Shown: piece by piece, positions 1-46,772 of the stretch | Layout of the letters: each line of letters starts with the position of its first letter | Position numbering within the stretch: position 1 is the first letter of the stretch | Source of the DNA: Staphylococcus phage vB_StaM_PB50 | Sequence record: OR770614.1 | Reading direction: 5' to 3' (one strand) | Length of the DNA: 64,000 bases | Position numbers and translations under genes: made by a program | The notes under the pieces: generated by a model | Database searches by the model: none | What the model saw: the letters and a program-made list of their open reading frames with translations, nothing else | Told to the model about the DNA's origin: nothing

Positions 1-2281
1 ATATGATTTATTATTATCAGGATTAAATACTATTCCTACTTCACAATATGACTTTGAAGAATTTAATAGTGAAACACCTTACTTAGAATACTTTAATGAT
101 AAGTTCTATAGTCGTAATGTTGGTAAAGGTATTAAAAATGCATTAGATTTAGCAATGGATCCTATTACAGAAGATGTATTAAGAGATTTAAAATTACCTG
201 AAACTATGGTAGAATTATTACTCTTAGCTAATACCATGCTAGAAGATGTAACTGCTAGAGAACACAATGACATGGGAATATATCGTGTACGTGGTCCAGA
301 ACAAGTTAATGCTTTAATATATAAAATGATTGCAAATGCATATAAAGAATATTCAGACTCTTACAATAATAAGAATCCTAAGAATATTTCTGTTAAGCAA
401 GACCAATTAATCAAAACTATAATGGAACAACCTACTGTAGATGAAGTATCTGATCTTAATCCATCTTTAGAGATTGATAAGATGACTTCTGTTACATTTA
501 AAGGTCCAGCAGGACGTAATAATGAACAATCATATGAACCTGACATTCGTTCATACAGTGAAAGTATGCAAGGTGTATTAGGAATATCTAGTCCTGATTC
601 TAATAAAATTGGGGTAGTTAGACAGCTTTCATATAATTCACTAATTAAATCTACTAGAGGTTATACAGATGGTGGTAAAAAAGATGCTAATGACACATCT
701 CTATATACTCCATTAGAACTACTTAACCCATATTCTAGTAGACATGCCGATGATCAAACATGGATAGTCGGCTTAAAAACTATTTAATTGCTGAAATTAC
801 TTTAAAGTTAATCAGCATCAATCAAATTGTTCAACGACTAAATAATAGTTACTAATTATATAATTAGTAATGATATAGTCTCAACTATGTATAAAGTATA
901 TAGAAATAAGATAATGTCTCCACGTATTGGAATGACTGGTACTCAAGCCAAGCACGTAATTCCAACAAAAACTAATAGTAAACCATTAGTTGGATCTGGT
1001 GTTGATAAATCTTTAGCTTATCAATTATCAGATACATTTGCTTTTAAAGCTAAGCAAGATGGTAAAGTATTAAAAATTAATGAGAAAACTGGTTTAATGA
1101 CAGTGGAATATATCAATGGTGAAAAAGATATTGTTGATATATCTGAAAAATTAGCCAAAAACTCTAACTCAGGTTTTTATCAATCTAATAAACTTGATCC
1201 ACAATTTAACGTAGACGACACTTTTAATAAAGGTCAAATACTTGCTAAAAATAATAATTTCTTTGCTGGATCTGGTAAAAATAATGATATTCAATTCACT
1301 TCAGGTAAATTATCTAAAGTATCTGTAGCTAGCTCATATGGTATTATAAATGCCTTTCATTATAGTAATGTAATGTCAAAAAATTATTAATTGCTGAGAA
1401 ATATTAAATTAATCAGCATCTCTATATTTATAGAGTTCAACGACTAAATATAATTATTCATTAATGCTAATGAATTTGATATAGTCTAATCTATTATAAA
1501 AATATAATAGCTAATATAAATGACTTATGAAGATAGTTCTATTATTTCTAGTAGTATGTCTGAAGCAATGTCTACTAAAGTTACTATGAAGAAAACAGTA
1601 AATATTCCATCAAACACAAATATTCAATATATAGTTAAAGAAGGTCAGAAAGTACGTACAGGAGATCCTTTAATGATATTTGAAACTTCATTCGATGAAG
1701 AAGGTATTGGTTCTTTATTAGATAAAATTGGTAGTGAATTTGAACAAGATATTCAAGATATAGCTAACCGAGCTGTTAGAAGTAAATATACAGGTAATAT
1801 TAAAAAGATTAATATTTATTATAATGATGATATTGAAAATATGACTGATAGTTTAGCTAAATTAGTTAATAATTACATTAAAAAATCAAATGATAAATAT
1901 AAAGAATATAAATCTGGAATTAAAAATAATAAAGAAACTTTACCTGGTATTGATGTAGATATCGCTGCAGTTGATAAAATTAATACAGAGAAAATTAAAG
2001 GGGAAAAAGTTGACGGAGTTCTTATTGAAATCTTCACTGAGTATGAAGATGATATGAGTGTTGGAGATAAAATTAGTTTCTATGGAGCTTGTAAAACTGT
2101 AGTTGCTGATGTAACTCCTCCAAATGAATCTCCTTATGCAGAATATAGACCTGATGAGGAAATCGAAGCTGTATTCTCTCCATTAAGTATTGTCTCTCGT
2201 ATGACAGTTGATATTTACATGATGCTATTTACAAATAAAGCTTTAATAGAATTAAAACGTAAAGTAAAAGATATGATTTAA
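1..2281 (+). CDS. multisubunit RNA polymerase beta-like subunit, N-terminal/middle fragment (5' partial; three exons approx 1-772, 917-1339..1354, 1523-2281 separated by two group I introns)
   Basis: The reading frame is open from the window start. The translation aligns with bacterial RpoB blocks: ISSPDSNKIGVVRQLS with ETPEGPNIGLINSLS, HADDQT with EHDDANRA, KPLVGSGVDKSLA with KPLVGTGMERAVA, and GDKISFYGACKTVV...SPLSIVSRM with GDKMAGRHGNKGVI...NPLGVPSRMN. The three ORF-track ORFs (155-787, 887-1390, 1520-2281) are joined in frame only when the intron cores are removed. The gene stops before the C-terminal conserved beta regions, so this is a split beta fragment. Confidence 0.7.
773..916 (+). 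mobile_element. group I intron (ORF-less, about 145 nt) in the beta-like gene; boundaries accurate to a few nt
   Basis: In order: P TTAATTGCTGAAATT (788-800), Q TTAATCAGCATC (810-821), R TTGTTCAACGACTAAAT (829-845), a 10-bp P8 hairpin TTACTAATTATATAATTAGTAA, S GATATAGTCTC (872-882), a P9 hairpin, then a G before exon 2 at 917. The P3 candidate is CTATT/AATAG. There is an in-frame TAA at 785 inside the intron. Confidence 0.7.
1340..1522 (+). mobile_element. group I intron (ORF-less) in the beta-like gene; the 5' end is uncertain (1340-1355)
   Basis: P TTAATTGCTGAGAAA (1388-1402), Q TTAATCAGCATC (1409-1420), R AGTTCAACGACTAAAT (1433-1448), P8 hairpin ATTCATTAATGCTAATGAAT, S TGATATAGTCTAAT (1475-1488), P9 hairpin CTATTATAAAAATATAATAG, and a terminal G at 1522. 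Exon 3 starts at 1523 in frame. Confidence 0.7.
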
Positions 2282-2286
2282 TTCAC

Positions 2287-2319
2287 ATATCCCAATGATT
2301 ATATTGATCATTGGGATAT
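2287..2319 (+). terminator. hairpin terminator after the beta-like fragment (ATATCCCAATGATTATATTGATCATTGGGATAT)
   Basis: Perfect 11-bp stem directly after the stop codon at 2281; a variant of the recurring CCCAATACC...GGTATTGGG hairpin. Confidence 0.5.
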
Positions 2320-2370
2320 TATTATTTAACACAATATTATTATAAATATTAAAGAAATGAGGAAAATATA

Positions 2371-3399
2371 ATGGATTTTAAATCTCTAGAAGAATCTTTA
2401 GATAAAGAATTTGGTTTAGTTAATGAAGATCCTGAACAAAACCTTTTTAATGATTTAAAAGGTGTTATTATAAATCAATATCAAAAAGGAATTGATAGAT
2501 TAACTAAACAAGGATATGCTAATTTTCAACCTAGTAAATTTGTTTATGCGGGAACTAATATAAACTTAGAAGTAAAATGTAAACATTTAGTTAGCGGAGA
2601 TAATACGGAAAGAGACTTTGCTGTAGTTAGAGTTAATAGAACTATTGCATCTGGTGGACAGTATGAAAGTTTAATGAATAGAAATAAATCATCCGTATTT
2701 CCTGAACTTAAAAAGATGAAACCTTCAGATGAAGCTAAAAAAGCTGCTGAAAGTAGAATTAAGAAAGATAAAATGAAAACGGAACTTCAAAAAGATATTG
2801 AAGATATTAGAAATACTAAAGACAAACAAGAGAAAAAAAGAAAGATTAAAGAATATAAAGAGAAATTGAAAAATAGTAAGAAAAAATTAAATGAAGAATT
2901 GAATCGTGATATCGATACTGATAAAGAAGAACCTATTTGTGAAGAGTGTGGTTCTAAAATGTCTCCAAATGAATCAGGTCAATTAGTATGTGAAGATTGT
3001 GGTAACACTGCAGATGTTGCTGTTCAAGAAGGAATTGTTGAACCTGATACTCTTGAAGCGGATTTTGCTAAAGCTTGTATGAATTTTAAAATAAAAGCTA
3101 AAAGTAAAGGTATTAGGATTGATTCGGGTAATGCTGTGGTAGTAGCTAAACGTACTGGTGGCAAAAACGCTGCTTTAGAAGTACCTATTATATATAAAGG
3201 TAAAGATAAAATTAGAAGAATACCTATTGGAATAGTTGCAGATCGTTTCAAAGAAGCTCAGAAATGGGCTCAAAGTAATGGTAATAAATTTGTATCTATC
3301 TTTAAAAAAGCTCCTGATAAAAAACCTGAGATTGATGAAGATGATAAAGTGGTAGAAGAATTAGAAAATAAATTGAATGAAGAATTCTTTTTAAACTAA
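2371..3399 (+). CDS. hypothetical protein with a C4 zinc-ribbon (CEECGSKMSPNESGQLVCEDCGN) and a lysine-rich coiled region
   Basis: RBS GAGGAAAA upstream. The N-terminus is MDFKSLEESLDKEFGL. The zinc ribbon is paralogous to motifs in the 6636-8552 product. Confidence 0.6.
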   Translation: MDFKSLEESLDKEFGLVNEDPEQNLFNDLKGVIINQYQKGIDRLTKQGYANFQPSKFVYAGTNINLEVKCKHLVSGDNTERDFAVVRVNRTIASGGQYESLMNRNKSSVFPELKKMKPSDEAKKAAESRIKKDKMKTELQKDIEDIRNTKDKQEKKRKIKEYKEKLKNSKKKLNEELNRDIDTDKEEPICEECGSKMSPNESGQLVCEDCGNTADVAVQEGIVEPDTLEADFAKACMNFKIKAKSKGIRIDSGNAVVVAKRTGGKNAALEVPIIYKGKDKIRRIPIGIVADRFKEAQKWAQSNGNKFVSIFKKAPDKKPEIDEDDKVVEELENKLNEEFFLN

Positions 3400-3436
3400 T
3401 AATTATTAAAAATAAAAAAAAGGTAGGAAAAAACTT

Positions 3437-4027
3437 ATGGAAGATATTTATATTCAAGAAGGTAAAAAATTAGATAAAGCTAAAAAAGCAGCTAGAAAAT
3501 TATTTTTAGGATTAACTCCTGAAGAAATTAAAGAAAAATTTGCTATACGTGTAGCTAAAAAGAAATATAGTCTTGAAGTTAAAAAAGGTTATAAGATAAA
3601 TTATTCTGACGCTAAATTATTTACACATGCAACTACACGTAAAGATTCACATGCTATAGATTACGAATTAAGTTTAGTGTTTTCTTTTACTAAACCTAAT
3701 GGTAAGAAAAGTTTCTTTGATAGAAGCGTTTTTATTTATAATCGTTTCGGATCAATGCAAGAAGCTGTATCATTCCAAAATAAACATGGAAAAGATTTAT
3801 TAAAAATATTTAAAACGACTAAAGCAGATAAAAAACCTAAGAAATCTAAATCAGTTAATGAAAGTATGGAAGAATTAGGTATTAATGAAGATTTTGAAGA
3901 CAAATTATTTGAATATTTAGAAGGCGTTACAGAGCAAATCTTATCTGAAGAAAATAAAGAAGAAAATGATAATAAAAAAGAATTAGATTCTCTAGAAGAA
4001 TCTTTAGATAAAGAATTCAGTTTATAA
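3437..4027 (+). CDS. hypothetical basic protein; its C-terminus repeats the peptide SLEESLDKEFSL
   Basis: RBS AGGTAGGAAAAAA upstream. The last 12 codons are a near-identical 36-nt copy of codons 4-15 of the previous gene. Confidence 0.55.
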   Translation: MEDIYIQEGKKLDKAKKAARKLFLGLTPEEIKEKFAIRVAKKKYSLEVKKGYKINYSDAKLFTHATTRKDSHAIDYELSLVFSFTKPNGKKSFFDRSVFIYNRFGSMQEAVSFQNKHGKDLLKIFKTTKADKKPKKSKSVNESMEELGINEDFEDKLFEYLEGVTEQILSEENKEENDNKKELDSLEESLDKEFSL

Positions 4028-4032
4028 TAATT

Positions 4033-4064
4033 ATCCCAATACCTAAATTAATAGGTATTGGGAT
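4033..4064. terminator. bidirectional hairpin ATCCCAATACCTAAATTAATAGGTATTGGGAT between convergent genes
   Basis: Perfect inverted repeat. The same hairpin occurs at 16143, 37548 and 52409. Confidence 0.6.
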
Positions 4065-4070
4065 ATTTTA

Positions 4071-5240
4071 TTATTTAAGTAAATCTAATTTATATTGTAA
4101 CGTTTCAATTTCTATGCCTAGTTTAACTGCTTTAAGAATATTTTTTCTTTCAGTTATAATTGTAGGAATAACATAAGATATTTCAGTGTTTAAGAAATTA
4201 ATATAATTTAATTTCTTGCTATTTGATGCAATAAATTTATTAAGACTATCTATGTCTTCTCTAGTTATATCTGATTCTGGATCATTAGCTGCTTTAAAAT
4301 ACTCATCTGATCTTTCTAAATCTTCATTAAGTTCTTTTTCAACTTCTTTATAAATTTTATCCATATCCTTAGAGAATAATTTTAAGTTATTTGTAAATTT
4401 ATCAATTTTTTCTATATCTTTATATCTAATATTTGCAGCATTATTTTCATTAATCACTTCATTAGCTGGAAAGATTTTTAAAGAGCTCTTATAATTTCTA
4501 TAATTAGATATTAATTCATCGATTTGTCTTACACTTCTTTTAACTTTAATTACTGAGCTGTTTATATTAACTTCATCTTTTATTCCCATAAATAAATCTT
4601 TAATGTCATTCAATACAGAAAGTTCTTTTAATAATCCTACGCTACCTCTTCCGATTATTCCTTCATAACCATCTTTTATTTTAATTTCACTTAAAGCTTT
4701 TTTCTTAGAGATTATTATATCATTAAATTCTTTTTTCTTCTCTTCTTTATTTTTTCTTAATTCTCTTTCATAGGTATCATTTAAATTATTTAAATATTTT
4801 CTAGATTTTTCTAGATCATTTATTGTTGAATCTTTCTTTTTACTTTCTCTTTCTTTATCTGCTAATTCTTTTTCTTTTTTCTCTATAGTCTTTTTCATAC
4901 GATCTAATTCAGAAGAATAAATATTATAATTATCTGAATTTACTTTTTTCATTTTTTCATTTTCTTTTTTAAGTTTATCTATCTCAGCAATAAATGCTTC
5001 TTCTTTCTTAGAATAACCTGTAATTTTATTAAATAGATTAACTATAAATTTCTTGAATTTCTTATAAATATTTACTAAGAAATTTTTAATTTTTAAAAGC
5101 ATTTTCTTAATCTTTTCTAATACACTCTTTTTATTTTTATTTGAAGATTCTTCTTCATTAATTACTTCATAAAAAGAAATTGATTCTTTAACAAAATCTA
5201 TTTCATATTCTTTCATCTCCAACATAGTATCTTCCCTCAT
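4071..5240 (-). CDS. hypothetical coiled-coil protein
   Basis: 389-aa ORF rich in K/E heptad-like stretches; no recognisable catalytic motif. Confidence 0.5.
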   Translation of the reverse strand: MREDTMLEMKEYEIDFVKESISFYEVINEEESSNKNKKSVLEKIKKMLLKIKNFLVNIYKKFKKFIVNLFNKITGYSKKEEAFIAEIDKLKKENEKMKKVNSDNYNIYSSELDRMKKTIEKKEKELADKERESKKKDSTINDLEKSRKYLNNLNDTYERELRKNKEEKKKEFNDIIISKKKALSEIKIKDGYEGIIGRGSVGLLKELSVLNDIKDLFMGIKDEVNINSSVIKVKRSVRQIDELISNYRNYKSSLKIFPANEVINENNAANIRYKDIEKIDKFTNNLKLFSKDMDKIYKEVEKELNEDLERSDEYFKAANDPESDITREDIDSLNKFIASNSKKLNYINFLNTEISYVIPTIITERKNILKAVKLGIEIETLQYKLDLLK

Positions 5241-5328
5241 TTTATTATTATTTTTTATATAAATTTAATGTTAACATTAACATATCGTATAAATAATAAT
5301 AATAATAATAAGAAAGTGAGGAAAATTA

Positions 5329-6597: not shown

Positions 6598-6635
6598 TAA
6601 ACTGTGAAATATAGAAAATAAAGGAGAATTTTAAT

Positions 6636-8552
6636 ATGTCTAAAAAAATAAATAAAACAGATTTAAATGAAGAAGATATGTTTTTATATGAAGGAAATGA
6701 TTTAGATAGTAATGATGAAGAATTAAAACGAGATATTCCTGAAGATGAAGAAGAAATTGAAGAAACTTTCAATAAATTAATCAATGAAGAAGAAATTGAT
6801 GATGAAGAATCTGATGATCTTGATGAAGTAGAAGATGCTGAAGAAGAAGATGATGTAAAAGTTATTGATTCTGATGATCCTGAATACGATGATCCTATTA
6901 TCTTAGATAAAGATGATGTAGTTGATGATGATACTGCAAATAATGACATTCAAGAGAATCTTTTATTTAATGAAGATGATAAAGAAGATGAAGAAAAAAC
7001 ACAACCTGGTTATACTGAATTAAGAGCTAAATTCTTAGATTCTCAAATGGTAGTTCCTACTACTTTTGGTCCTCATTCAACTTATGGAGTTAATACATCC
7101 AGTGCAAATACTTCAGCACCTTCCGTTAGTGATGGAGGAATGTCAACAGCTAACGGTACAGCTAGTGTTGGAGGAGCAGTTACTGAAACTTATTTATACA
7201 ATAAAGATCCTAAACCTGAATTTACTTTTGTAGATTTAAAAAATGCTTTGTTAGATACTGATGCCGAAGTAGGATATACAATAGGTACACCTGAATCTAG
7301 TGAAGTAAAAAATCAAAGTAAAAATATTGTTGCGAATGAAGCTTATGTAGATGAGGAAAATAAAGCATTTCCTTTTGTTAAAGTAAATGAAAATTACGAT
7401 ACTGCTATTGTAAAAGCTTTTAATGGTGAAGTTAAGAAAATTAGTGAATCCATTTTAAATACTTTTAAATTAGAATCTAAAAGTAGAAAACAAATTTTTG
7501 TTACTAATGAATCAATTGAAACTATGCGTGGATTATTAAATGAAACTGGAAAAATTAAAAACGGTCAACAAATTTGTGAAGATTGTGGTAGTAAACTTTC
7601 TCTTAATGAATCCAATGAATTAATCTGTGAAAATTGTAATAAAGATATAAATGAAGCAATTAAACAAGAAAAAGAAGTTGGAGAAGTTATCTGCAATGAG
7701 TGTGGGGTACAAGAAGAAGTTGACCCTAACGTTAATGAAGCTGAATTAGTTTGTGAAAATTGTGGTTCTGATGATGTTGAATTTAAAACTAAAGTTATTA
7801 ATGAATTTGAAACTAATGAAGAATTTTCACCTAAAGATTTATTAAGATATGCAACTACAATTTCCGAATCATTAGGTAAACGTGTAGATATAGTTGTATC
7901 TAAAGAATCTTATTCACAAATTCCTTCTGTATATGATCCATCTTCTTTACTTGTAGATAAAGTTGACTTTGGTAAAGGATTTAAAAAGGTAATTGTTGTG
8001 GCTCCTAAAGGAAATAAATTACTTAAAGAACTTTATACTAGTAATGAAATTGATTTTGATTCACTTAAAGAAGAATTCAATAGTCAATTAATACAACGTG
8101 TCACTAATGAATCACTAAATGGAATTTTAGAAAACTTTTTAAATCCTTTAGATGAAGTTGATCATAGTGTAAAAGAAGAACTTAATAATAATGAAGTTGA
8201 TCTAGAACAATTAGAAGAATCAATTAATGCTGAAATGAAAAATAAAGATGAAGTATTATATGAAGGTCATCAAGAGTCTTTAGAAGAATTCTATGAAGAT
8301 ATTGTTTTTGAAGCTTATGAAAATGTACCTAATAAAGATGAAGAAAAATTCAAAAAAGCTTTAAGTGAAAATATCAATGATCTTAATATCAATAAAGAAA
8401 TTAAAGTTAGTGAATCATCATTAATTATCAATGGAAAAACTATTGATTTTGAAGATAAAAGTGAAAAAGAATTAAAAGAAATGCTAATGAATGAAAGTAG
8501 ATTAGAACAAAATCTATTGAACGAAAATATTTTTAAAATTATTAATGGTTAG
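6636..8552 (+). CDS. hypothetical protein with a very acidic N-terminal third and three CxxC...CxxC zinc-ribbon units
   Basis: RBS AAGGAGAA. Zinc-ribbon units: ICEDCGSKLSLNESNELICENCN, ICNECGVQEEVD, VCENCGSDD. The unit resembles the ribbon in the 2371-3399 product. Confidence 0.55.
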   Translation: MSKKINKTDLNEEDMFLYEGNDLDSNDEELKRDIPEDEEEIEETFNKLINEEEIDDEESDDLDEVEDAEEEDDVKVIDSDDPEYDDPIILDKDDVVDDDTANNDIQENLLFNEDDKEDEEKTQPGYTELRAKFLDSQMVVPTTFGPHSTYGVNTSSANTSAPSVSDGGMSTANGTASVGGAVTETYLYNKDPKPEFTFVDLKNALLDTDAEVGYTIGTPESSEVKNQSKNIVANEAYVDEENKAFPFVKVNENYDTAIVKAFNGEVKKISESILNTFKLESKSRKQIFVTNESIETMRGLLNETGKIKNGQQICEDCGSKLSLNESNELICENCNKDINEAIKQEKEVGEVICNECGVQEEVDPNVNEAELVCENCGSDDVEFKTKVINEFETNEEFSPKDLLRYATTISESLGKRVDIVVSKESYSQIPSVYDPSSLLVDKVDFGKGFKKVIVVAPKGNKLLKELYTSNEIDFDSLKEEFNSQLIQRVTNESLNGILENFLNPLDEVDHSVKEELNNNEVDLEQLEESINAEMKNKDEVLYEGHQESLEEFYEDIVFEAYENVPNKDEEKFKKALSENINDLNINKEIKVSESSLIINGKTIDFEDKSEKELKEMLMNESRLEQNLLNENIFKIING

Positions 8553-8594
8553 AATTTTATAACATTATTATATAATATTAATTATTTTTCGCTG

Positions 8595-11710: not shown

Positions 11711-12673
11711 ATGGCTAAAAAACATATCGGTACATGGAACGGTGTTCCTGTATATACTGATTTTTTACCAATAGGTACTCGTAGAGCTGGAGATAAGCTT
11801 AACGGACCTAAATTTATTGTTGCTCATGACACTGGGAACCCTAACACTACAGCACAAAATAATGTAGATTACTACCGTAATTCATATAATATTGATTGGA
11901 ATTATACAGCATCAGCTCATATCTTTGTTGATGATAAAGAATGTATTATCTGTGTTCCTTTAGATGAAAAAGCATGGCACGTTATGTATGGTACACCTAC
12001 AGATAATGCTTGGTATGGAGTGGATGCAAACGATTCAGCAATTGGAGTAGAAGGATGTTACTTCTCAGACCGTAATCGTTCATTAAAATCATTTGATAAT
12101 TACTGTCGTGTATTAGCTTATTTATGTAAAACATATAAGATTAACGCTAGCACAAATATGCCTGGACATCAAGATATTCAGGCAGATAAACAAGATCCAG
12201 GTAACTTATTAGCTGCGTGCGGTATGTCTCGTAGTGTTTCTAATGTAGATAAAAAAGTATTAGCTTATATGAAATCTGGTGTTACTTCGACTGCAAAAGA
12301 CAGTAAAACAACTAAAGTTGCTACTAAAGAAGAAGTTGCTAAGAAAGCTCCAGCTAAACCGGCTAAAACTTCAACTGTAACTTCTAAAACTTGGAAACGT
12401 AATTCTGCAGGAATTCTATGGAAAACTGAAAAAGCTACATTTAAATGTGGTGTTTCAGTAGGTATTAAAACTCGTAAAGGTGGTCCATGGACTGGATGGC
12501 CGCAAGGTCCATTTATGGCTAAAGGAGATACTATTAAATATGATGAAATTCAAGATTTTGATGGTTATATTTGGGTATCAGGTAACTTTAAAGGTCAATA
12601 TGTTTATGTACCGGTTGGTAAATCAACAGGAAATGGTAAACGTGTAGGGCCAGCATGGGGTACATTTAGTTAA
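11711..12673 (+). CDS. endolysin: N-acetylmuramoyl-L-alanine amidase (Amidase_2/PGRP type) with a C-terminal SH3b (SH3_5) cell-wall binding domain
   Basis: RBS GGAGGAAA. The SH3b block is WKRNSAGILWKTEKATFKCGVSVGIKTRKGGPWTGWPQGPFMAKGDTIKYDEIQDFDGYIWVSGNFKGQYVYVP. The amidase region contains a conserved His. Confidence 0.85.
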   Translation: MAKKHIGTWNGVPVYTDFLPIGTRRAGDKLNGPKFIVAHDTGNPNTTAQNNVDYYRNSYNIDWNYTASAHIFVDDKECIICVPLDEKAWHVMYGTPTDNAWYGVDANDSAIGVEGCYFSDRNRSLKSFDNYCRVLAYLCKTYKINASTNMPGHQDIQADKQDPGNLLAACGMSRSVSNVDKKVLAYMKSGVTSTAKDSKTTKVATKEEVAKKAPAKPAKTSTVTSKTWKRNSAGILWKTEKATFKCGVSVGIKTRKGGPWTGWPQGPFMAKGDTIKYDEIQDFDGYIWVSGNFKGQYVYVPVGKSTGNGKRVGPAWGTFS

Positions 12674-12788: not shown

Positions 12789-13586
12789 ATGAAAACAAAA
12801 ACTCAAGCTCTTGATTGGGTTAATAGTCGTATTGGTCGTAGACTAGATTTTGATGGTTGGTATGGAGCTCAGTGTATGGATTTAACTATAGGTTACTGTA
12901 ATTATATCTCAGGTGGTTCTTTCCGTCCTTGGGGTAATGCAATTAATCTTAAAGACAACACAATGCCAGCTGGATGGAAATTAATTAAAAATACTCCATC
13001 ATTCTTACCTCAACCTGGTGATATTGCTATTTGGGCTTATGCACCTTATGATGTTTATGGTCATACAGGTATTATTACTTCAGCTAACTTAAATAACTTC
13101 TATTCAGTTGACCAAAACTGGTTTAATGCAGGAAGTAACGGTTCACCGGCAGCTAAAGTATTTCATGATTATACAGGTTTCTGGGGAGTAATTCGTCCAG
13201 CTTTTGGTAGTACATCTACTAAGAAAGCAACTCCTAAGAAAGCGGCTCCTAAGAAAAAAGTAGTTAAAAAAGCAGCTACTAAGAAAGCAGCTACAACTGC
13301 TACTTGGAAACGTAATTCTGCAGGAATTCTATGGAAAACTGAAAAAGCTAAATTCACATGTAATGTTTCTTCAGGAATTATTACTCGTAAAAATGGTCCA
13401 TGGACTGGATGGGCTCAAGGTCCATTTATGAAGAAAGGTGATACTATTAAATATGATGAAATTCAAGATTTCGATGGACATATTTGGGTATCAGGTAACT
13501 TTAAAGGTCAATATGTTTATGTACCAATTGGTAAATCAAATGGTAAAGGACAACGTATTGGTGCTGCATGGGGTACATTTAGTTAA
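12789..13586 (+). CDS. endolysin: CHAP-domain peptidase with a C-terminal SH3b domain
   Basis: The CHAP Cys/His context is WYGAQCMDL ... DVYGHTGII, followed by a KKAxPKK linker. The SH3b block is almost identical to that of the preceding gene. Confidence 0.85.
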   Translation: MKTKTQALDWVNSRIGRRLDFDGWYGAQCMDLTIGYCNYISGGSFRPWGNAINLKDNTMPAGWKLIKNTPSFLPQPGDIAIWAYAPYDVYGHTGIITSANLNNFYSVDQNWFNAGSNGSPAAKVFHDYTGFWGVIRPAFGSTSTKKATPKKAAPKKKVVKKAATKKAATTATWKRNSAGILWKTEKAKFTCNVSSGIITRKNGPWTGWAQGPFMKKGDTIKYDEIQDFDGHIWVSGNFKGQYVYVPIGKSNGKGQRIGAAWGTFS

Positions 13587-18315: not shown

Positions 18316-18355
18316 AATAAAATCTCTCCTAATAAAATAATTTTTGTATTACTAC

Positions 18356-18380
18356 TTTTATATAATATATATTTAAATTT
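18356..18380 (-). promoter_or_regulatory. conserved AT-rich motif (plus-strand reading TTTTATATAATATATATTTAAA); candidate promoter for 17110-18315
   Basis: Member of a motif that recurs upstream of at least 8 minus-strand genes. Confidence 0.35.
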
Positions 18381-22109: not shown

Positions 22110-22185
22110 ACTTAAATTCCTCCTTAGTAATTTTTATATAATATACCAAACTCTAAAGTTAATTAGAGTTTGGTTAAATCAATTA

Positions 22186-24102: not shown

Positions 24103-24145
24103 ATCCTAATCTCTCCTTAAGTATAAATAAATCAAATATTGTTAC

Positions 24146-24166
24146 ATGTTTATAATATATAATTGA
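24146..24166 (-). promoter_or_regulatory. variant of the conserved AT-rich motif (GTTTATAATATATAATTG) upstream of the beta-prime C gene
   Basis: Lies 45-65 nt upstream of the start at 24102. Confidence 0.3.
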
Positions 24167-27509: not shown

Positions 27510-30143
27510 TTAAGCTCCTTTACTTTTTATTTTATCAGATACTTTCTTAGCTGCAACATTCAATGGAGGTAAACCATGAAATTCTTGAGCAAATGCTACA
27601 CTATCTTGACTGTTAAATTTACTAATAAATTCAGTATTAAAGTCGTAATTTAATTTGTCTTCTTCATACTTAGGAACTGTCATTGTAGATTTATCTTGTA
27701 TTTGAATTTTACCTATATGTCCTTCAGGTGTTATATTATATGCTCTAATAATAGATGGATATAGAGCAGTCAAGTCAAAGTCACAAACATTACTAAATAA
27801 TCTATTAGATCTAATATCTCTACCTTTAACTAAAATATCACCCATACGTTCTATTAATGTCATATTAGCTACAAATCCACCACGTATTTTATCTGCGTTT
27901 GGATCAGATAGTATTTTAGAGTGATTATTACTTAATACATATCCTTGATTTTCAAAGAAGACAGAACTACGATTTCTTAAACAAATAGTTTTCTTAAGTG
28001 CTTTACTTGGTCTCGTTCTAGTCATATCTACAATAGAGAATAATAAATCAAACATATTAGTGTTCTTTTCTATTAAAGCAGTTAATACTGTATCTTTAAT
28101 ATTGTATAGAATAAATGTATAATAATCTCTAAAATGTAAATCAGAGATAGATCCTTCATATACATCCTTTTTAATACCAGTTTCTTTTTCACCAACATCA
28201 TTTAACTTAACTGATTCCATAACACCATTTGGTTTATTTACATTTGCATATAAAGCTAATTGGTCAATCCAGTTAGTGTATGAGTTAGTTTCGAATGTAG
28301 ATGATCTATTAGCTGCATCTGTAGCATTTTTATCTAATCTATAATAAGCTTTTTTATCTTGTAAATCTTTAGAACAGAAATAATCAGCTGGATCTTCTCC
28401 ATTAGCTCTGATTCTTTCAAATATAGCAGGAAAATCGTAATCAAGATTCCACTTTTATTTAAATAGACTGTATCTTATTTGTTATTTAAACAAATTTCCT
28501 TATTCAGTCGTTGAACGTATATTAATACGATGCTGATTAGTTTAAACACTTCCAGCAATTAAAGGAATTTTACACGACCTAGAATTTTGATTAAGCCGTA
28601 CATACATCAGGTTTACTAATTTCATTAATATAATATAAAAATGCTTTTATAATTTCCATTTCAGATTCTAATTCATATATTTCAAATTCTAATCCTAGAT
28701 TACCAATTTTACTATTTTCATTATTATAAATATTATTTAAATCTTCTAACAGTTTACTTTTATTTTCCATAGTTTCTTTATAAGTATCTGTATCATATTT
28801 TAAAGCAAATGTTAAACATTTACGTTTACTCCAGTCAACAGCAGTTATAATATTAACTTCAGCCTCTGCTTTTTCTGGTTCAGGGACATTTATATTAACT
28901 TTATACAATTGTATAAAGATTAGACTATATCTTTTAAATTCAAATATATTTCCATTTAAAATTTTTGTAAGTTTTACTATTTCTATAACCATTTGCAACT
29001 GCTTGTATTCCTTTTCTATCTATATTTAATTCTTCCGCTGCAAATTTAGCACTTTCATATTCTTTTATAATTTTATCTGTTTCTTTATCTATTTGTGCCA
29101 CTGGTTTTCTTCTCTTTTTTAATGATTCTTCCATTTTATCAGTTTTATGAAGATTATTTTCTATAGCATGTAAATTATTTTCTAATACTGACATCCATTC
29201 TAAATTAGATAAATTATTATTTAATTTATTACCGTCAATATGATTAACTACATTTTTATCAATATCTTTATTTTCGATAAAATTCTCTGCAACTAAACGG
29301 TGTATTCTTCTTGTATGCTTCTTATTATTTTTATATAATTGAACATCTTCATAACCATTTTTATTTATTCTTGTCTTTAATACTCTTTCTTTAATAAGCA
29401 TTCTTTTATCTTTACCTTTTAAAGAATCATTATATACATATCTTGAAACCGATTTAACTTTACCAGTATTGGATATTTTATAGTAATTTTCAAAATCTTT
29501 AATGTCTTTCCATATTTCTTTCATTATTTTCCTCCTTTTATAAAGGAAGTATATTTGAATTATATTATTATATTTAGTCGTTGAACACTAAATTAGTGAT
29601 GCTGATTATTTTTAAACTTTTCAGCAATTAATAATTTTTTAATTGAGCTACCTAAATTAACCCAACTGTTTGCGAAGAATCAACTTCTATATCAAAGAAA
29701 ACTATATCAATTCCAACTTTACTATCTAAGTTTTGTTTGATATACTCATTAATATTATAATCTTCAATATTAATATCAGATCCATGAACATTATTCATTA
29801 AATGAAAATCTTTTAATTTTCTAAACTCTTCATAATTACCTGAAGATAATATTCTATCGTATTCTGATTTATCTTGAGCATTACCTGCTTCTCTAACTAT
29901 AGATTTAATAACATCTTTATGTTTACAGTGTACAGTTCTAACTTTTTCTTTAGCCATAGAACCTACAACTATATTAGGTGGTAACCAATGTTCATCTTTA
30001 GTTACATAATAATGCATCATAGGATCTACTATTTCCATATGTTTCTTAGTTCCATCTTCTTCTTTGACTACCATTACTACTTTTTCTTTTTTATTAGATG
30101 TTTCTTTTTTATTCAAATATGTTGATTTTATAAAACGACCCAT
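27510..30143 (-). CDS. family-B DNA polymerase, N-terminal half (exonuclease motif I through polymerase motif A); three exons approx 30143-29660, 28898-28595, 28451-27510 separated by two group I introns
   Basis: Exo I: IVFFDIEVDSS. ESEMEIIKAFLYYINEISKPDV|WNLDYDFPAIFERI matches the E..LL..F...I....PDII.GYN..FD.PYL block. Motif A: CDFDLTALYPSIIRAYNITPE. The gene stops about 70 aa after motif A. Motifs B and C are in a separate gene at 49872-51988. Confidence 0.85.
28452..28594 (-). mobile_element. group I intron (ORF-less, about 143 nt) in polB-N
   Basis: On the minus strand: P TTAATTGCTGGAAGTG, Q AATCAGCATC, P6 GTATTAATATAC, R GTTCAACGACTGAAT, P8 AAATTTGTT..ACAAAT, S ATACAGTCTAT, then a G before the exon TGGAATCTT (WNLDY). 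R and S carry a compensatory pair (GACUG/CAGUC versus GACUA/UAGUC in the other copies). Confidence 0.7.
28899..29659 (-). mobile_element. group I intron carrying an HNH homing endonuclease ORF (inserted between R and S), in polB-N
   Basis: On the minus strand: exon ...GTTGGGT then intron TAATTTAGG..., P TAATTGCTGAAAAG, Q TAATCAGCATC, R GTTCAACGACTAAAT, then RBS AAAGGAGG and the HNH ORF; S AAGATATAGTCTAAT sits after the ORF (plus-strand 28909-28925), then P9 TATACAATTGTATA and a terminal G at 28899. Confidence 0.7.
28940..29524 (-). CDS. HNH homing endonuclease (intron-encoded; NUMOD4-like N-terminus, HNH core, IENR/NUMOD1-like C-terminal DNA-binding motif)
   Basis: NTGKVKSVSRYVY ... HTRRIHRLVAENFIENKD ... 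VVNHIDGNKLNNNLSNLEW and the C-terminal AAEELNIDRKGIQAVANG. Strong RBS AAAGGAGG is 8 nt upstream. Confidence 0.85.
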   Translation of the reverse strand: MKEIWKDIKDFENYYKISNTGKVKSVSRYVYNDSLKGKDKRMLIKERVLKTRINKNGYEDVQLYKNNKKHTRRIHRLVAENFIENKDIDKNVVNHIDGNKLNNNLSNLEWMSVLENNLHAIENNLHKTDKMEESLKKRRKPVAQIDKETDKIIKEYESAKFAAEELNIDRKGIQAVANGYRNSKTYKNFKWKYI

Positions 30144-37579: not shown

Positions 37580-37583
37580 AACA

Positions 37584-37605
37584 TTTTTATAATATATATT
37601 TATTC
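37584..37605 (-). promoter_or_regulatory. conserved AT-rich motif (ACATTTTTATAATATATATTTATT), candidate promoter for 36743-37522
   Basis: Lies 62-81 nt upstream of the start at 37522. Confidence 0.35.
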
Positions 37606-38579: not shown

Positions 38580-38602
38580 TAATATATTATGGGCAAAATA
38601 AT

Positions 38603-39388: not shown

Positions 39389-39434
39389 TTAGTTAATCAC
39401 TTCTTTCATATATTATAAAAGTAAGTTAATTAAA

Positions 39435-41363: not shown

Positions 41364-41427
41364 ATCTTTTCCACTCTCCTAATTAAATTAATATAGAGAT
41401 AATGAATCATATTAATTCATTATCTCA

Positions 41428-41450
41428 TTTTTATAATATATATTTAACAC
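41428..41450 (-). promoter_or_regulatory. conserved AT-rich motif (TTTTTATAATATATATTTAACAC), candidate promoter for 40749-41363
   Basis: Lies 65-87 nt upstream of the start. Confidence 0.35.
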
Positions 41451-41455
41451 ATATT

Positions 41456-42133: not shown

Positions 42134-42135
42134 TA

Positions 42136-42321
42136 TTATTCTTCTCCTTTTAAGATTCTTTCCATTTCTTCTTTAGAAACTTTCTCTCCTATAATTGGAC
42201 CTTTTATTTTTTTCTTGTCTTTATTTTTCTCTCTGTATAATTCTGCATCAATTTCCCATTTTTCTTGTAAAGTCAATTGTTTACTTTCATTTTTTCTAAT
42301 TTCTTTTCTCATATTTATCAA
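42136..42321 (-). CDS. small charged hypothetical protein (61 aa)
   Basis: K/E-rich ORF that fills the gap between family members. Confidence 0.35.
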   Translation of the reverse strand: MINMRKEIRKNESKQLTLQEKWEIDAELYREKNKDKKKIKGPIIGEKVSKEEMERILKGEE

Positions 42322-42326
42322 TCCCC

Positions 42327-42818
42327 TTATCTAAAATGATTTCTAATTTTAAAATCTTTTACTTCTTTACAATCTTCTGAGATTATTTCAAATATATCTT
42401 CATTATCAAAATTGAATTTTTCTAATGGAATATTATAATGTGCCATATTTATATCTATCGCATAACATAATCTTTTATAAAATAAATAATAAAGATCAAT
42501 TGAAGAGTCTGATATGACAAGATTTTGGTTTGTTAAATCTATATTTTTAGGTATAAAAGGAATACTATTAAGATCCCAAGAAATGTTTGTAGTTAAATGA
42601 AGATTAATAAAACCGTAAAGTAAGAAAAACTCCAATTTTATAATTCCTACGTCTTCATCATATAAATCAATCTTTTTACCATAAGATCTATAAAAAGACG
42701 AATTCTCTTTTTTAAATTTATTTCCAAATACATAATAAAATGCATCATCTTTTCTATGAATATCATTAACTTCATATATTTCGCCATTTACTTTATTTTC
42801 GTAATATATCATATCCAC
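42327..42818 (-). CDS. member of the KYLVKxNFK-tail family (short subtype; C-terminus KDFKIRNHFR)
   Basis: N-terminus MDMIYYENKVNGEIYEVNDIHRKDDAFYYVFGNKFKKE; recent duplicate of 43546-44028. Confidence 0.6.
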   Translation of the reverse strand: MDMIYYENKVNGEIYEVNDIHRKDDAFYYVFGNKFKKENSSFYRSYGKKIDLYDEDVGIIKLEFFLLYGFINLHLTTNISWDLNSIPFIPKNIDLTNQNLVISDSSIDLYYLFYKRLCYAIDINMAHYNIPLEKFNFDNEDIFEIISEDCKEVKDFKIRNHFR

Positions 42819-42828
42819 TTACACTTCC

Positions 42829-43530
42829 TTATTTAAATTCTTCTTTAATTAAGTAATTTTTAATTTCTTCCTCATCAGTAATTTCTTCAGCAATAAATTC
42901 CAAATTCCATCTTAGATAATCCATAAAATACATATACGAATTGTCGATCTTAATTCTAAGGTCCTTTAATATATAATATATCAATTCATCTAGAGAATCA
43001 TAAACGTCATTATTCTTATCAGACAAATAATCTTGTTTGAAACTAACTTTAAAATGTACTTCATTTTTATCCATTGTACAAGAAGATATTTTATATTTAT
43101 CACTTTTATATTTATCTAGCATACGAATTATTTTCTTAGCCTTTTTTGTATTTAAAACAATTTGAAATATATTTTCATAAATTCCATCATTATCTGTATT
43201 AGAATCAGAGAAACAAACAATTGAAGATGAAATATTTCTTTCTTTATTTTCATTACTCTTAATTATTATATCTTCGTCTACTCCAATTAAATTTTTAAAA
43301 TTTATAATAATATCTGAATGTGTATAAAAATGAAAATTCAGTTGTTTATTAATTAAATAAGAGTTTCCATTGGTTGTAACGGGTTGGTCTTCATAATTAT
43401 AATATGGGTAAAAATTACTTTTTATCTGTTTCATGACTTTATAAAGAAATCTACCATTATTAATTTCATCTTTAGATAAAATAAATTTATTACCATTTTC
43501 TAGATTTTTATACAATTTAATATTTTCCAT
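42829..43530 (-). CDS. member of the KYLVKxNFK-tail family
   Basis: N-terminus MENIKLYKNLENGNKFILSKDE; C-terminus IAEEITDEEEIKNYLIKEEFK. Confidence 0.6.
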   Translation of the reverse strand: MENIKLYKNLENGNKFILSKDEINNGRFLYKVMKQIKSNFYPYYNYEDQPVTTNGNSYLINKQLNFHFYTHSDIIINFKNLIGVDEDIIIKSNENKERNISSSIVCFSDSNTDNDGIYENIFQIVLNTKKAKKIIRMLDKYKSDKYKISSCTMDKNEVHFKVSFKQDYLSDKNNDVYDSLDELIYYILKDLRIKIDNSYMYFMDYLRWNLEFIAEEITDEEEIKNYLIKEEFK

Positions 43531-43545
43531 TTAAAATTTCTCCTT

Positions 43546-44028
43546 TTATTTAAAAAGATTTCTAATTTTAAAATCTTTTACTTCTTTACAATCTTCTGAT
43601 AATATTTTAAATATGTCTTCATTATCAAAATTAAATTCTTTTAATAATATATTATAATTTAATAAAGGTATATCTATTGCATTACACATTCTTTTATATA
43701 ATATATAGTAAAGATCTTCTGAAGAATCAGATGAGACAAGATTTTGATTCTTTAAATCTACTAATTTAGGTGCAAAAGGATTATTATTATCATATTTCAT
43801 ATGTGTAACTAAAAATAATCTAGATGAGTCATAATTTAATTGGAAGTTTAATTCTTTATGTCCTTTATCTTTATCAAATAAATCAATTTTTTTACCCACT
43901 GATTCATATAATTCCATTCTTTCTTTTTTAAATTCATTACCAAACACATAACAAAAAGCATCATCTTTTCTATGAATATCATTAACTTCGTATATTTCAC
44001 CATTTACTTTATTTTTGTAATATATCAT
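43546..44028 (-). CDS. member of the KYLVKxNFK-tail family (short subtype; C-terminus KDFKIRNLFK)
   Basis: N-terminal 35 aa near-identical to 42327-42818 at both DNA and protein level. Confidence 0.6.
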   Translation of the reverse strand: MIYYKNKVNGEIYEVNDIHRKDDAFCYVFGNEFKKERMELYESVGKKIDLFDKDKGHKELNFQLNYDSSRLFLVTHMKYDNNNPFAPKLVDLKNQNLVSSDSSEDLYYILYKRMCNAIDIPLLNYNILLKEFNFDNEDIFKILSEDCKEVKDFKIRNLFK

Positions 44029-44045
44029 TATCTATTTCAACTCCA

Positions 44046-44666
44046 TTATTTAAAATTTTCTTTAATTAAATATTTCTTAATCTTATCAATATCTTTTTCT
44101 TCATTATTTTCTAATTCATTTATATTCCTACCATTTAATAACAAATCATAACCTTTATCATTAAATTTTCTTTCTAAATCGTATAAGTATCTAATTACAA
44201 TATCAGAATATTTTAAATGAAAATCATTTTTATCATAATTAAAAATAGAAATTGTTACATTATTGATTTCTTTATCATCTACTATTAAATTTATATAATC
44301 AACATCTGATATAAGTTTTTTATATCTATCACTTTCTATTTGTTTTTCTTCATTATCATAAAACAATCTTATGCCACTTGTATATTCATTTAACTCATTT
44401 TCTTGTTTTTCAGAAAAAATATCTATTGACAAACTAAATTGAAATTTTATATTTTCACATATCAATTCAAGATTATCAAGAGAAATATTTATATCTAATC
44501 TCTCTAGACCTAAATTTAGAAAATTATCTTCCTTGATACGATCTACATCAATATGCAACATTCCTATCAAGTCTGTAATATTTCCTTTAATTTTATCTTT
44601 ATAGATTTGCATTAATCTATCATCCATTTTAAAATACCTATAATCATTAATATTCAAAATAATCAC
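44046..44666 (-). CDS. member of the KYLVKxNFK-tail family
   Basis: N-terminus MIILNINDYRYFKMDDRLMQIYKD; C-terminus DKIKKYLIKENFK. RBS AAAGGAGAAG. Confidence 0.6.
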   Translation of the reverse strand: MIILNINDYRYFKMDDRLMQIYKDKIKGNITDLIGMLHIDVDRIKEDNFLNLGLERLDINISLDNLELICENIKFQFSLSIDIFSEKQENELNEYTSGIRLFYDNEEKQIESDRYKKLISDVDYINLIVDDKEINNVTISIFNYDKNDFHLKYSDIVIRYLYDLERKFNDKGYDLLLNGRNINELENNEEKDIDKIKKYLIKENFK

Positions 44667-44693
44667 TTCTCCTTTTATATTTTAATACACTTC

Positions 44694-44716
44694 TATTTTA
44701 TAATATATATTTAAAT
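44694..44716 (-). promoter_or_regulatory. conserved AT-rich motif (TTTTATAATATATATTTAAATAAG), candidate promoter for 44046-44666
   Basis: Directly downstream of the beta-prime N gene terminator hairpin. Confidence 0.35.
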
Positions 44717-44727
44717 AAGTATTTTGT

Positions 44728-44775
44728 ATAAGAGCAATATAATAAGAGTAACGATCTATATTAGACCGTTACTCT
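44728..44775 (-). terminator. rho-independent terminator of the beta-prime N gene (AGAGTAACGGTC..GATCGTTACTCT plus U-rich tract on the minus strand)
   Basis: 12-bp stem followed by TTATTATATT on the minus strand. Confidence 0.55.
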
Positions 44776-44786
44776 GAATTTTTAAA

Positions 44787-46772
44787 TTATTCTTTAGTTA
44801 AAGAATATAAAGCTTGTACCATATATTTATGATAATTAGACTATATCTTATGATATTTAAATCATTTTCATATTTAGTCGTTGAACAACTTTTATTAAGT
44901 TGATGCTGATTAATTTTGTTTTTCCAGCAATTAATGAAATTTATTGAGAGCATACAAACTTACTCTCATTACCAACTCCACGTATACTATTTCCTGTGTA
45001 GTTTAAGTAATTAGTTTTCTTATTAATAAGTTTATCAGCTTCTTTATTTGCTTCTACAGACCATAAAGAGCGTATTGAAATCATATCCATTTTATATACA
45101 TGTATTTACATATAATTAGACTATATCTTCTTTAGTAATATATTTAGTCGTTGAACAACTTTTATTAAGTTGATGCTGATTATCTTATAGATTTTCCAGC
45201 AATTAATATTATTTAATGATGGTAATATAAAATTTTGCCATCAAAATCTGCACCAAGTGCTTGAGCATATGAATTGTGTATGATTGCAGTATCTAAGAAA
45301 ATATCTTCATCAACAGGATACTCTCTTACTACTTTAGGGTAATCTTTTAATACTATATCATCTAAAATTATTTCTGGAATAGTATCAACAGTAGTTAATA
45401 TTTTAATTTTAGCAGGTGCTACGTTCAAGAAATTTTCGCATTTATTATATTTATATAAGTATTATATAAATTAGACTATATTATATACTATTAAATAGTA
45501 TCATTGCATTTAGTCGTTGAACAATTATATTTAATTGATGCTGATTAACTTTATTAATAGTATTTCAGCAATTAACAATATTTATCAACTTAAATCACTT
45601 TAAGCAGCGACCATTTTATTAATCGGATATCTTGAATACATAACATGCTTATCTTCTACTATTTCGGTTGCAGCAATATAAAGTAAATCAATTACAGTAA
45701 AATCTCTACCCAAAGTTTTTTCAAATAATTTAACTTTATGGCGTTTACCTTCTCTATCATTTACATATATAGGACTAAATCTTTCATTAGGATCTTTAAT
45801 AAAGAATTCTAGCATATTCTTAATAGATTTATCATCGAATTGTTCATATACTTCTTCTAATGATAATTCTTTCTCATCATTTCCAGTAGCTGTTTGGAAA
45901 GCATCTTTATGAAGTTCAATAAAATCAATTATATACTTATTAAAGAATGGTAAGAATAATGTAACTAACTGAGTTAATGGTACACCTAACTCACCAAACT
46001 CAATTTGCATTTCATCCCATTTATTCGAATTAATTTTAGGTGAAGAAATAACAGCACGAGTACTATTATCTACCGTTTTACCCAATATACGTTTTTGCAT
46101 AAAACCAGTTTTACCTGATAATTCTCCTGAAGTAAATTTCTGATATATTTCAAATAATGTATTTTGTATATTATATTTAGTACTGTTAGCAATAAAACCA
46201 AAAGAATTAAAACTAATGGCATCTACAGAACGTATAATAGAAGAATACATATTATTAACTTCTTCAGTATCTTGAATTTCTCCTGAAGTTTCATTAGGAT
46301 TAAAGTCTCTATAAAAAGCAGGTATTACTAGCCATTTATCTACAAATATTTTTTGCTTATCTGTATTTTTAATCATATCAATTTTTTCAGATCTAATACG
46401 AGAATCATTCTTTTTAAATTTTAAATCATCAAATACTTCATATAAGAAATTCAGTCCAGTATCTCCATCTTCTGAAGGAACTAATTGACCTTTTTCTACT
46501 TTAAAATATTCTGAACCCTGAATACATAGTTCAATATTTTTATCTAAATCTTTTAATGCTTTATAAGCTACCGGATTAAGGTATTTATCCTTTAAATTAA
46601 TCCAACCTAAATTAGTTTTTCTTTCAGGAGTACCTATTAAACCAAATATATCATATGAAAATAAACCATCTTCTTTTGGTAATATACCTGAATCAAAGAA
46701 TACAGGATTGGTTACTTCTTTAGCATTTGTATCAGTTATGACTTGTTCAATATCTATCATATCTACTTTCAT
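44787..46772 (-). CDS. multisubunit RNA polymerase beta-prime-like subunit, N-terminal fragment (regions A to D/E including the catalytic DFDGD); four exons approx 46772-45604, 45438-45237, 45087-44956, 44819-44787 separated by three group I introns
   Basis: EDGLFSYDIFG matches ERDGLFCARIFG. ILGKTVDNSTRAVISSPK matches LLGKRVDYSGRSVITVGP. YAQALGADFDG|DMISIRSLWSVEANKEADKLI matches [30 protein letters not shown]. The final 11-codon exon VQALYSLTKE matches VLGLYYMTRD. The frames connect only when the intron cores are removed. Confidence 0.8.
44820..44955 (-). mobile_element. group I intron (ORF-less, about 136 nt), third intron of beta-prime N
   Basis: On the minus strand: P TTAATTGCTGGAAAAAC, Q TTAATCAGCATC, P6 AACTTAATAAAAGTT, R GTTCAACGACTAAAT, P8 AAATGATTTAAATATCAT, S AAGATATAGTCTAATT, and a G before exon GTACAAGCT. 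Confidence 0.65.
45088..45236 (-). mobile_element. group I intron (ORF-less, about 149 nt) inserted between DFDG and D of the beta-prime catalytic motif
   Basis: On the minus strand: exon ...GCAGATTTTGATGGC then intron AAAATTTTATATTACCATCATTAAATAATA, P TTAATTGCTGGAAAATC, P5 ATCTATAAGAT, Q AATCAGCATC, P6 AACTTAATAAAAGTT, R GTTCAACGACTAAAT, S AAGATATAGTCTAATT, ...AAAATG then exon GATATGATTTCA. An in-frame TAA lies 8 codons into the intron. Confidence 0.75.
45439..45603 (-). mobile_element. group I intron (ORF-less, about 165 nt), first intron of beta-prime N (in the NRAPTLH-equivalent region)
   Basis: On the minus strand: ...ATGGTCGCTGC then TTAAAGTGATTTAAG (hairpin CUUAAA/UUUAAG), P TTAATTGCTGAAATAC, Q TTAATCAGCATC, R GTTCAACGACTAAAT, P8 GATACTATTTAATAGTAT, S AATATAGTCTAATT, P9 TATATAATACTTATATA, ...AAATG then exon CGAAAATTTC. 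Confidence 0.7.

Follow-up and report, generated by a model that had tools for sequence, protein, structure and literature searches.

Predicted virion and non-virion RNA polymerase genes of Staphylococcus phage vB_StaM_PB50, with compact group I introns in two of them

Introduction

The Bacillus phage AR9 expresses its non-virion RNA polymerase (nvRNAP) genes early and its virion RNA polymerase (vRNAP) genes late, and it is the injected vRNAP that transcribes the early genes (PMC5312081; PMC7598289); AR9-like phages are reported to possess uracil DNA and to form no phage nucleus (PMC7598289). The Staphylococcus phages Machias, MarsHill and Madawaska resemble the Bacillus phages AR9 and BpSp and carry five genes for 'viral' and five for 'non-viral' RNA polymerase (RNAP) subunits, with introns breaking up many of the genes (Korn et al., bioRxiv 10.1101/2020.12.14.422802). 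Here, we describe RNAP genes in a 64,000-nucleotide (nt) stretch of Staphylococcus phage vB_StaM_PB50 (PB50; sequence record OR770614.1), referred to below as the window. The window very probably holds three of roughly ten genes for two phage multisubunit RNAPs, with introns interrupting the two that belong to the vRNAP. Split vRNAP and nvRNAP genes in AR9-like Staphylococcus jumbo phages, and introns within them, have already been published; what remains new is confined to the compact introns and some corrections of annotation.

The three PB50 genes have one-to-one orthologues in AR9 and PBS1 (g189, g145 and g154), with identical split points for the ends of the polypeptides. Also shared is the early-promoter consensus, and group I introns interrupt vRNAP genes in both groups. 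The two differ in host (Bacillus versus Staphylococcus), are 33-50% identical in amino-acid sequence and do not share intron number, position or content: AR9 g145 and g189 contain homing-endonuclease open reading frames (ORFs), whereas the introns of the PB50 RNAP genes are ORF-less. Much closer are Machias, MarsHill, Madawaska, DC4, S6, PALS_2 and SA1, which fall into the same genus-level group as PB50, with the same gene order and RNAP subunits that are 80-99.8% identical. Introns in the RNAP and DNA polymerase genes of this group are already on record. Machias differs from PB50 in possessing a homing-endonuclease-containing version of the first beta intron, a version that the window lacks, and DC4, S6, PALS_2 and SA1 differ in that their N-terminal beta-prime gene is intron-less.

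The vRNAP and nvRNAP of phiKZ-like phages (gp178/gp149/gp180/gp80 and gp55/gp74/gp71-73/gp123/gp68, respectively) have the same split beta/beta-prime architecture but are much more distant. In PhiPA3, the gp210 intron, which is of group I and interrupts a vRNAP beta gene, borders a conserved Asp (Birkholz et al. 2024, PMC11620839). The first PB50 beta intron likewise follows the conserved Asp of an HDD-like motif, but the PhiPA3 intron contains an HNH homing endonuclease and that of PB50 contains no ORF. A further parallel is the split rpoC1/rpoC2 pair of cyanobacteria (gamma and beta-prime), which is divided, as here, after the double-psi beta-barrel (DPBB) that carries DFDGD; the coincidence of the cyanobacterial and phage split sites has been noted in a review (PMC7598289). 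Unlike the cyanobacterial enzyme, the PB50-type phage enzyme has no alpha, omega or sigma subunit, and its virion beta-prime is in three pieces.

Results and discussion

The large beta polypeptide

A reading of the window made without database searches (the sequence-only reading) had picked out three RpoB- and RpoC-like regions. All three are real, with similarities far above chance, and in comparisons with the subunits of phiKZ and AR9 each finds its AR9 orthologue, the third matching phiKZ gp74 as well. The first region (1-2281, plus strand) has a frame that is open from base 2 and broken twice, and comprises the 3' part, the last 644 codons, of a gene that we identify as encoding the large (~1,400 residues) predicted vRNAP beta polypeptide orthologous to AR9 g189, which is annotated as 'beta subunit, N-terminus; virion RNAP subunit'. 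Roughly 790 further residues of the polypeptide lie upstream. The spliced 644-residue product matches phrog_14872 ('RNA polymerase beta subunit'; E=4.8e-162, profile positions 753-1390 of 1393), its C-terminal end falling on the same residue as the end of the profile, and it aligns in a single piece with the intron-less S6, DC4 and SA1 polypeptides. Its last raw ORF matches the Pfam family RNA_pol_Rpb2_6 (E=1.7e-8, profile positions 129-281 of 373), and alignment with the beta chain of PDB entry 6j9e (6j9e_C) involves the stretches 545-604, 697-819 and 1090-1172. The GPGG/fork block, EHDDANRALMG and the GDK...SRM block of bacterial beta are all aligned, with E. coli beta residues 672-732 covered; conserved regions D, F and H are present, and the polypeptide ends before region I, within Rpb2 domain 6. 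A search with the N-terminal ~1,000 residues, taken from the Madawaska copy, gave no match in the PDB and only a weak one to Rpb2_3 in Pfam (E=0.19).

The first beta exon in the window (2-751), which runs off the left window edge and was delimited from its open frame and the alignment of homologues, ends in ...SSRHAD. It is followed by an ORF-less group I intron of 165 nt (bN_A, 752-916), recognized by its P/Q/R/S core, terminal G and covariation. The insertion point of bN_A, after the D of RHAD, aligns with the junction of EHDD and ANR in E. coli beta, and its P1 helix pairs GCCGAU with GUCGGC, the splice site being marked by U:G. The next exon (917-1342, SPRIGMTG...VASSYG) is colinear with exon 2 of Madawaska and with intron-less homologues, and a second ORF-less intron of 180 nt (bN_B, 1343-1522), identified by its core elements and terminal G, separates it from the last exon (1523-2281, including the stop), which carries the GDK...SRM block of beta region H and was placed by the Pfam Rpb2_6 match and the PDB alignment. 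Madawaska is uninterrupted at the bN_B site, reading ...SSYG directly into TYEDSS....

The RHAD site is polymorphic among related phages. Its intron is about 140 nt long in Madawaska, and, judging from coordinates, an extra ~1.4 kb with two homing-endonuclease ORFs in Machias appears to be located here too. No intron occurs at this position in DC4, S6, SA1, LPJP1 and phiR1-37, and the AR9, PBS1, Goe21 and BpSp genes are interrupted at or near it. The site is a candidate for, and may be, the one occupied by the PhiPA3 gp210 intron; a tblastn search with a 130-residue query did not retrieve phiKZ or PhiPA3.

The N-terminal beta-prime polypeptide

The second region (46772-44787, minus strand) is identified as the gene for the N-terminal beta-prime polypeptide of the predicted vRNAP, carrying the catalytic DFDGD loop and orthologous to AR9 g145. 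Its raw 390-residue ORF (46772-45600) shows 43% identity, across 99% of its length, with AR9 g145 (E=1e-99), which is annotated as 'virion RNAP subunit ... N-terminus', and resembles the nvRNAP paralogue (7s00_d) much less strongly (E~1e-12). Splicing of four exons across three introns yields a product of 503 residues, the same length as DC4_00023 and the LPJP1 protein, that matches phrog_2986 (E=1.4e-109, residues 1-499) and aligns as a single piece from 1 to 503 with SA1, PALS_2, DC4 and S6 (identity about 85%) and, also in a single piece, with BpSp and Goe21 (44%). Removal of the second intron restores GADFDGD, and a Pfam RNA_pol_Rpb1_2 match over this motif (25.5 bits against a cut-off of 25.3) appears only after splicing. 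Bacterial beta-prime regions C and D align with the spliced product, which also aligns with residues 455-521 of the 624 of cyanobacterial gamma and ends about 50 residues past DFDGD, at a 'post-DPBB' split. It contains a single Cys and thus no N-terminal zinc ribbon; the remark in the sequence-only reading that an N-terminal zinc finger is absent holds.

Exon 1 (45622-46772; 383 codons plus 2 nt), delimited by alignment with AR9 g145, is followed by bpN_1 (183 nt, 45439-45621), with a P1 of CGAU and GUCG and a terminal G, at a site that is read through in Madawaska (RYPI directly followed by ENFL). Exon 2 (45237-45438) ends in ...GADFDG, and bpN_2 (149 nt, 45088-45236) lies inside the codons of the motif, at DFDG/D, where the slash marks the insertion point. 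Exon 3 (44962-45087, DMISIRSLW...GNES), placed like exon 2 by colinearity with homologues, precedes bpN_3 (142 nt, 44820-44961), the P1 of which pairs UGAGAGU with GCUCUCA and includes the U:G pair. All three introns are ORF-less. The short exon 4 (44787-44819), ten codons reading VQALYSLTKE and a stop, was recognized from the C-termini of Madawaska (...GNESVQALYSLTKE and stop) and LPJP1 (...LYTLTK and stop); Madawaska is uninterrupted across GNES and VQALYSLTKE. An intrinsic-terminator-like hairpin follows the gene (44745-44775, minus strand).

The C-terminal beta-prime polypeptide

The third region (24102-22186, minus strand) is a single uninterrupted gene of 638 codons, the product of which is exactly PB50 WPH64319.1. 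On the basis of PDB, Pfam and tblastn matches, we identify it as the predicted C-terminal beta-prime polypeptide of the nvRNAP, containing the bridge-helix/trigger-loop block and orthologous to AR9 gp154. It matches Pfam RNA_pol_Rpb1_5 (E=1.6e-8), chain D of the AR9 nvRNAP structure (PDB entry 7S00, 7s00_D; E=1.7e-78 over residues 31-633), phiKZ gp74 (7ogp_D; E=8.4e-18) and E. coli beta-prime residues 723-938 (E=3.9e-8). The last of these segments corresponds to regions F-G, as the sequence-only reading had proposed for this gene. Its tblastn counterpart, AR9 g154, is annotated as 'non-virion RNAP subunit ... C-terminus', and in MarsHill and Madawaska the orthologous genes carry the label 'non-viral'. 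The polypeptide has exactly four Cys residues (HDC...ITC-x6-C-x2-CYG), which may be those of the second beta-prime zinc site. An intrinsic-terminator-like hairpin is found after the gene (22145-22174, minus strand).

Two enzymes

Orthology settles the predicted assignment: the beta and N-terminal beta-prime genes would encode subunits of the virion enzyme and the C-terminal beta-prime gene a subunit of the non-virion enzyme, so that the two beta-prime halves are not partners. The two halves are placed in different enzymes because their AR9 orthologues are g145 (virion) and g154 (non-virion). That they might instead be the N- and C-terminal parts of one enzyme is suggested by their complementarity, one covering regions A-D and the other F-G, and by their location on the same strand, 20 kb apart, but this arrangement is very unlikely. 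The one-to-one AR9 orthologues of the halves differ, g154 being present in the nvRNAP structure 7S00, and the MarsHill and Madawaska records label the halves 'viral' and 'non-viral'. In addition, the middle beta-prime gene of the vRNAP lies just outside the window: in Machias it adjoins the beta gene, divergently oriented and just upstream of it, which corresponds to a position beyond the left window edge. No further RNAP subunit was found in the window, either from the synteny with the annotated Machias and MarsHill genomes or in PHROG and Pfam scans of 18 other ORFs.

Group I introns

The breaks in the ORFs, two in beta and three in the N-terminal beta-prime gene, are identified as five group I introns, each 142-183 nt long and ORF-less. 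On the minus strand between 45700 and 44600, three near-identical blocks of ~110 nt each contain the classical group I intron elements P, Q, R and S, here AATTGCTGGAAA, AATCAGCATC, GTTCAACGACTAAAT and GATATAGTCTAA. The core sequences AATTGCTG (P), AATCAGCA (Q), GTTCAACGACTAAAT (R) and GATATAGTCT (S) are found in all copies of the intron, and the window has eight occurrences of the R element, where 0.14 would be expected. In total, the 64 kb contain eight group I introns of one family, of which seven are ORF-less (142-183 nt) and one bears an ORF; the three outside the RNAP genes (28593-28452, 50980-50808 and 29659-28887, minus strand) interrupt DNA polymerase genes.

Splice sites were set by colinearity with intron-less homologues, by pairing of the end of the 5' exon with the internal guide sequence and by the terminal G. 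A U able to pair with G is present at the 5' splice site in seven of the eight introns, and all eight end in G. The core was tested on an alignment of the seven ORF-less introns of the window (five from RNAP and two from DNA polymerase genes), considering P3, P4, the base of P6, P7 and P8. P3 was missed by RNAalifold, since this program cannot draw a pseudoknot, and was tested using a hand-written structure that includes the P3-P7 pseudoknot. In this structure the P3/P4/P6/P7/P8 core is 99.4% paired, compared with 24-50% in shifted registers, compensatory changes are observed in 13 of the 26 core pairs, and none of 500 shuffles reached any of these measures.

If the beta and N-terminal beta-prime genes were instead decaying pseudogenes, or products of sequencing or frameshift artefacts, the pieces would be non-functional remnants. 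In-frame stops do leave three ORFs in one gene and four in the other, Pfam matches are lacking for four of the six raw ORFs examined, and the pieces appear as separate or hypothetical proteins in the PB50 record and in those of AH12 and LY01. Nevertheless, we regard decay or artefact as highly improbable. Each of the breaks is an entire group I core whose helices covary, and removal of the introns at U:G (or C:A)...G boundaries restores a frame that is colinear to the residue with intron-less homologues, Pfam matches appearing or improving only after splicing. The same introns are present in the independently sequenced Machias and AH12, and the exons are 99.5% identical to those of Machias. 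The claim of the sequence-only reading that each region stops at a domain boundary can be retained in part: the final ends of the genes do lie at family-wide split sites, but the internal stops are better explained as read-through into group I introns.

Several observations weigh against the interpretation offered here. In a 1-kb local search, the Rfam group I model RF00028 gave 32.6 bits for bpN_2 (E=2.6e-6), 27.8 for bpN_3 (E=7e-5) and 21.9 for bpN_1 (E=0.004), all below the gathering score of 50 bits. Rfam scans of the whole window found nothing at the gathering threshold, and a scan by E-value returned chance matches only, the introns being lost to the filters. The introns, which have almost no periphery, lack P2, the P9 extensions and most of P5, all of which the Rfam model expects. 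One of them, bpN_2, has a C in place of the canonical U at its 5' splice site, and the splicing of all five RNAP introns is a prediction from sequence. The virion or non-virion assignment derives from orthology with annotated AR9 genes together with one weak proteomic match, the beta orthologue UFVDC4_00067 having been detected by liquid chromatography-mass spectrometry in DC4 virions from one peptide; the DC4 virion proteome lists this protein and not the N-terminal beta-prime orthologue (PMC10638138). Finally, the beta gene is labelled 'C-terminal' in the GenBank records of Machias, MarsHill and Madawaska and 'N-terminus' in that of AR9. The AR9 wording appears to fit better, as an N-terminal (large) part, since the polypeptide extends up to region H and does not include region I.

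The 5' splice site of bpN_2 (45237/45236, minus strand) deserves separate comment. The last base of the exon (GAU GGC) is a C that faces an A of the guide ACCAUCA, and the same C and A are found in Machias and AH12. The MarsHill intron at the same DFDG/D site has GGU opposite GCCGU; given this U:G, both sides have changed, from U:G to C:A. The intron thus appears to have C:A in place of the near-universal U:G. In Yersinia phage phiR1-37, the gene annotated as vRNAP beta-prime N, g178, ends in ...GGDFDGKF and two stops, exactly at DFDG/D, which suggests an unannotated intron at the position of bpN_2.

We know of no natural group I intron so small with a complete core, and a literature search on the smallest group I introns gave nothing useful. 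It is tempting, if rather doubtful, to suppose that the ORF-less introns, lying as they do in essential genes, may rank among the smallest natural functional group I ribozymes and that splicing through C:A in bpN_2 could gate the amount of active vRNAP.

Phage group and host

Megablast searches with two parts of the window gave matches restricted to Staphylococcus jumbo phages, the top match being Machias (MW349128), with a nucleotide identity of 97.3% over 44000-47200 and 95.5% over 1-4000, and the window is syntenic along its entire length with this 274-kb phage genome. The DNA identity of 95-97% to Machias and the AR9 orthologues bear out the earlier suggestion of an AR9/phiKZ-type jumbo phage. 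Two further remarks of that kind were also correct: the window is AT-rich, with a GC content of 21-31%, and cell-wall hydrolase ORFs of staphylococcal type, Amidase_2+SH3_5 (11711-12673, plus strand) and CHAP+SH3_5 (12789-13586, plus strand), were found adjacent to each other in a domain scan. These observations support the placement of PB50 among Machias-like, AR9/PBS1-related jumbo phages, themselves related to phiKZ, with a low-GC Gram-positive host. Least probable of all, and hardly to be entertained despite the detectable similarity to bacterial beta and beta-prime, is that the RNAP regions are rpoB/rpoC pieces captured from a low-GC host or that the window is bacterial, since the bacterial matches are marginal and local (E~1e-3 to 1e-13) whereas the E values for AR9-like subunits are 1e-70 to 1e-100 in tblastn and 1.7e-78 for the PDB chain, and the window, besides its synteny with the phage genome, contains portal, baseplate, lysin and split DNA polymerase genes.

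Promoters and transcription

A putative AR9-type early (vRNAP) promoter, AATTATATATTAT-AAACAT-G (24145-24164, minus strand), was found by motif matching 42 nt upstream of the start codon of the C-terminal beta-prime gene. It has one mismatch to the AR9 early-promoter consensus, AAATATATATTAT-(6N)-G (PMC5312081), and an early promoter is annotated at the same position for AR9 g154. Seven exact copies of AAATATATATTAT-N6-G occur elsewhere in the window, all on the minus strand (18355-18374, 37582-37601, 41426-41445, 44693-44712, 49271-49290, 55511-55530 and 61483-61502), where 0.02 would be expected; the copy at 44693-44712 lies between the terminator of the N-terminal beta-prime gene and the next gene. 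This excess over expectation suggests that the promoter specificity of the vRNAP is conserved between the Bacillus and Staphylococcus phages. An AACA-N6-TA late-promoter motif upstream of the N-terminal beta-prime gene was set aside as too short to be meaningful alone.

By analogy with AR9, from which we infer both the timing of expression and packaging into the virion in PB50, a packaged vRNAP would be injected with the DNA and would use AAATATATATTAT-N6-G promoters to transcribe early genes; a promoter of this kind, if functional, precedes the C-terminal beta-prime gene of the nvRNAP. The nvRNAP made early might then transcribe the late genes, those for the vRNAP subunits included. Five introns would have to leave the mRNAs to restore the vRNAP frames, and the DFDGD active-site motif would exist in the spliced message only.

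Annotation of the subunit genes

In the PB50 record, the N-terminal beta-prime polypeptide is represented by the 390-residue read-through of exon 1. The Machias record gives a coding sequence of 499 residues that ends in ...GNESKFVCSQ and a stop inside intron 3, omitting that intron and exon 4, and the AH12 and LY01 records present the exons as three 'hypothetical' ORFs. In AH12 and LY01, this gene contains a fourth copy of the intron core. The intron content of such phages is probably under-reported, since the Rfam group I model misses compact introns. The practical value of the present analysis is corrective: each fragment is assigned to an enzyme, exact exon and intron coordinates restore the 503-residue catalytic N-terminal beta-prime polypeptide, and the conflicting N- versus C-terminal label of the large beta polypeptide is flagged.

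Neighbouring genes

Three ORFs downstream of beta (2371-3399 and 6636-8552 on the plus strand and 4071-5240 on the minus strand) show weak zinc-ribbon matches (C-x2-C...C-x2-C), and one ORF downstream of beta has a sub-threshold match to a phiKZ internal head protein. The description of DC4 mentions a 'Sigma70 factor', and its gene number, UFVDC4_00065, implies a place near the beta gene. No sigma-70 domain was detected in the five ORFs downstream of beta, and the DC4 gene could not be mapped exactly. No tRNA genes were found in the window.

The two DNA polymerase genes that share the intron family are both on the minus strand. The catalytic-subunit gene (49872-51988) contains one intron of 173 nt and is annotated with three exons in Machias. 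The exonuclease-domain gene (27510-30143) has an intron of 773 nt, which encodes an I-HmuI-like HNH/NUMOD4 endonuclease (ORF 29524-28940), and a mini-intron of 142 nt, which precedes a WNLDYDFP motif.

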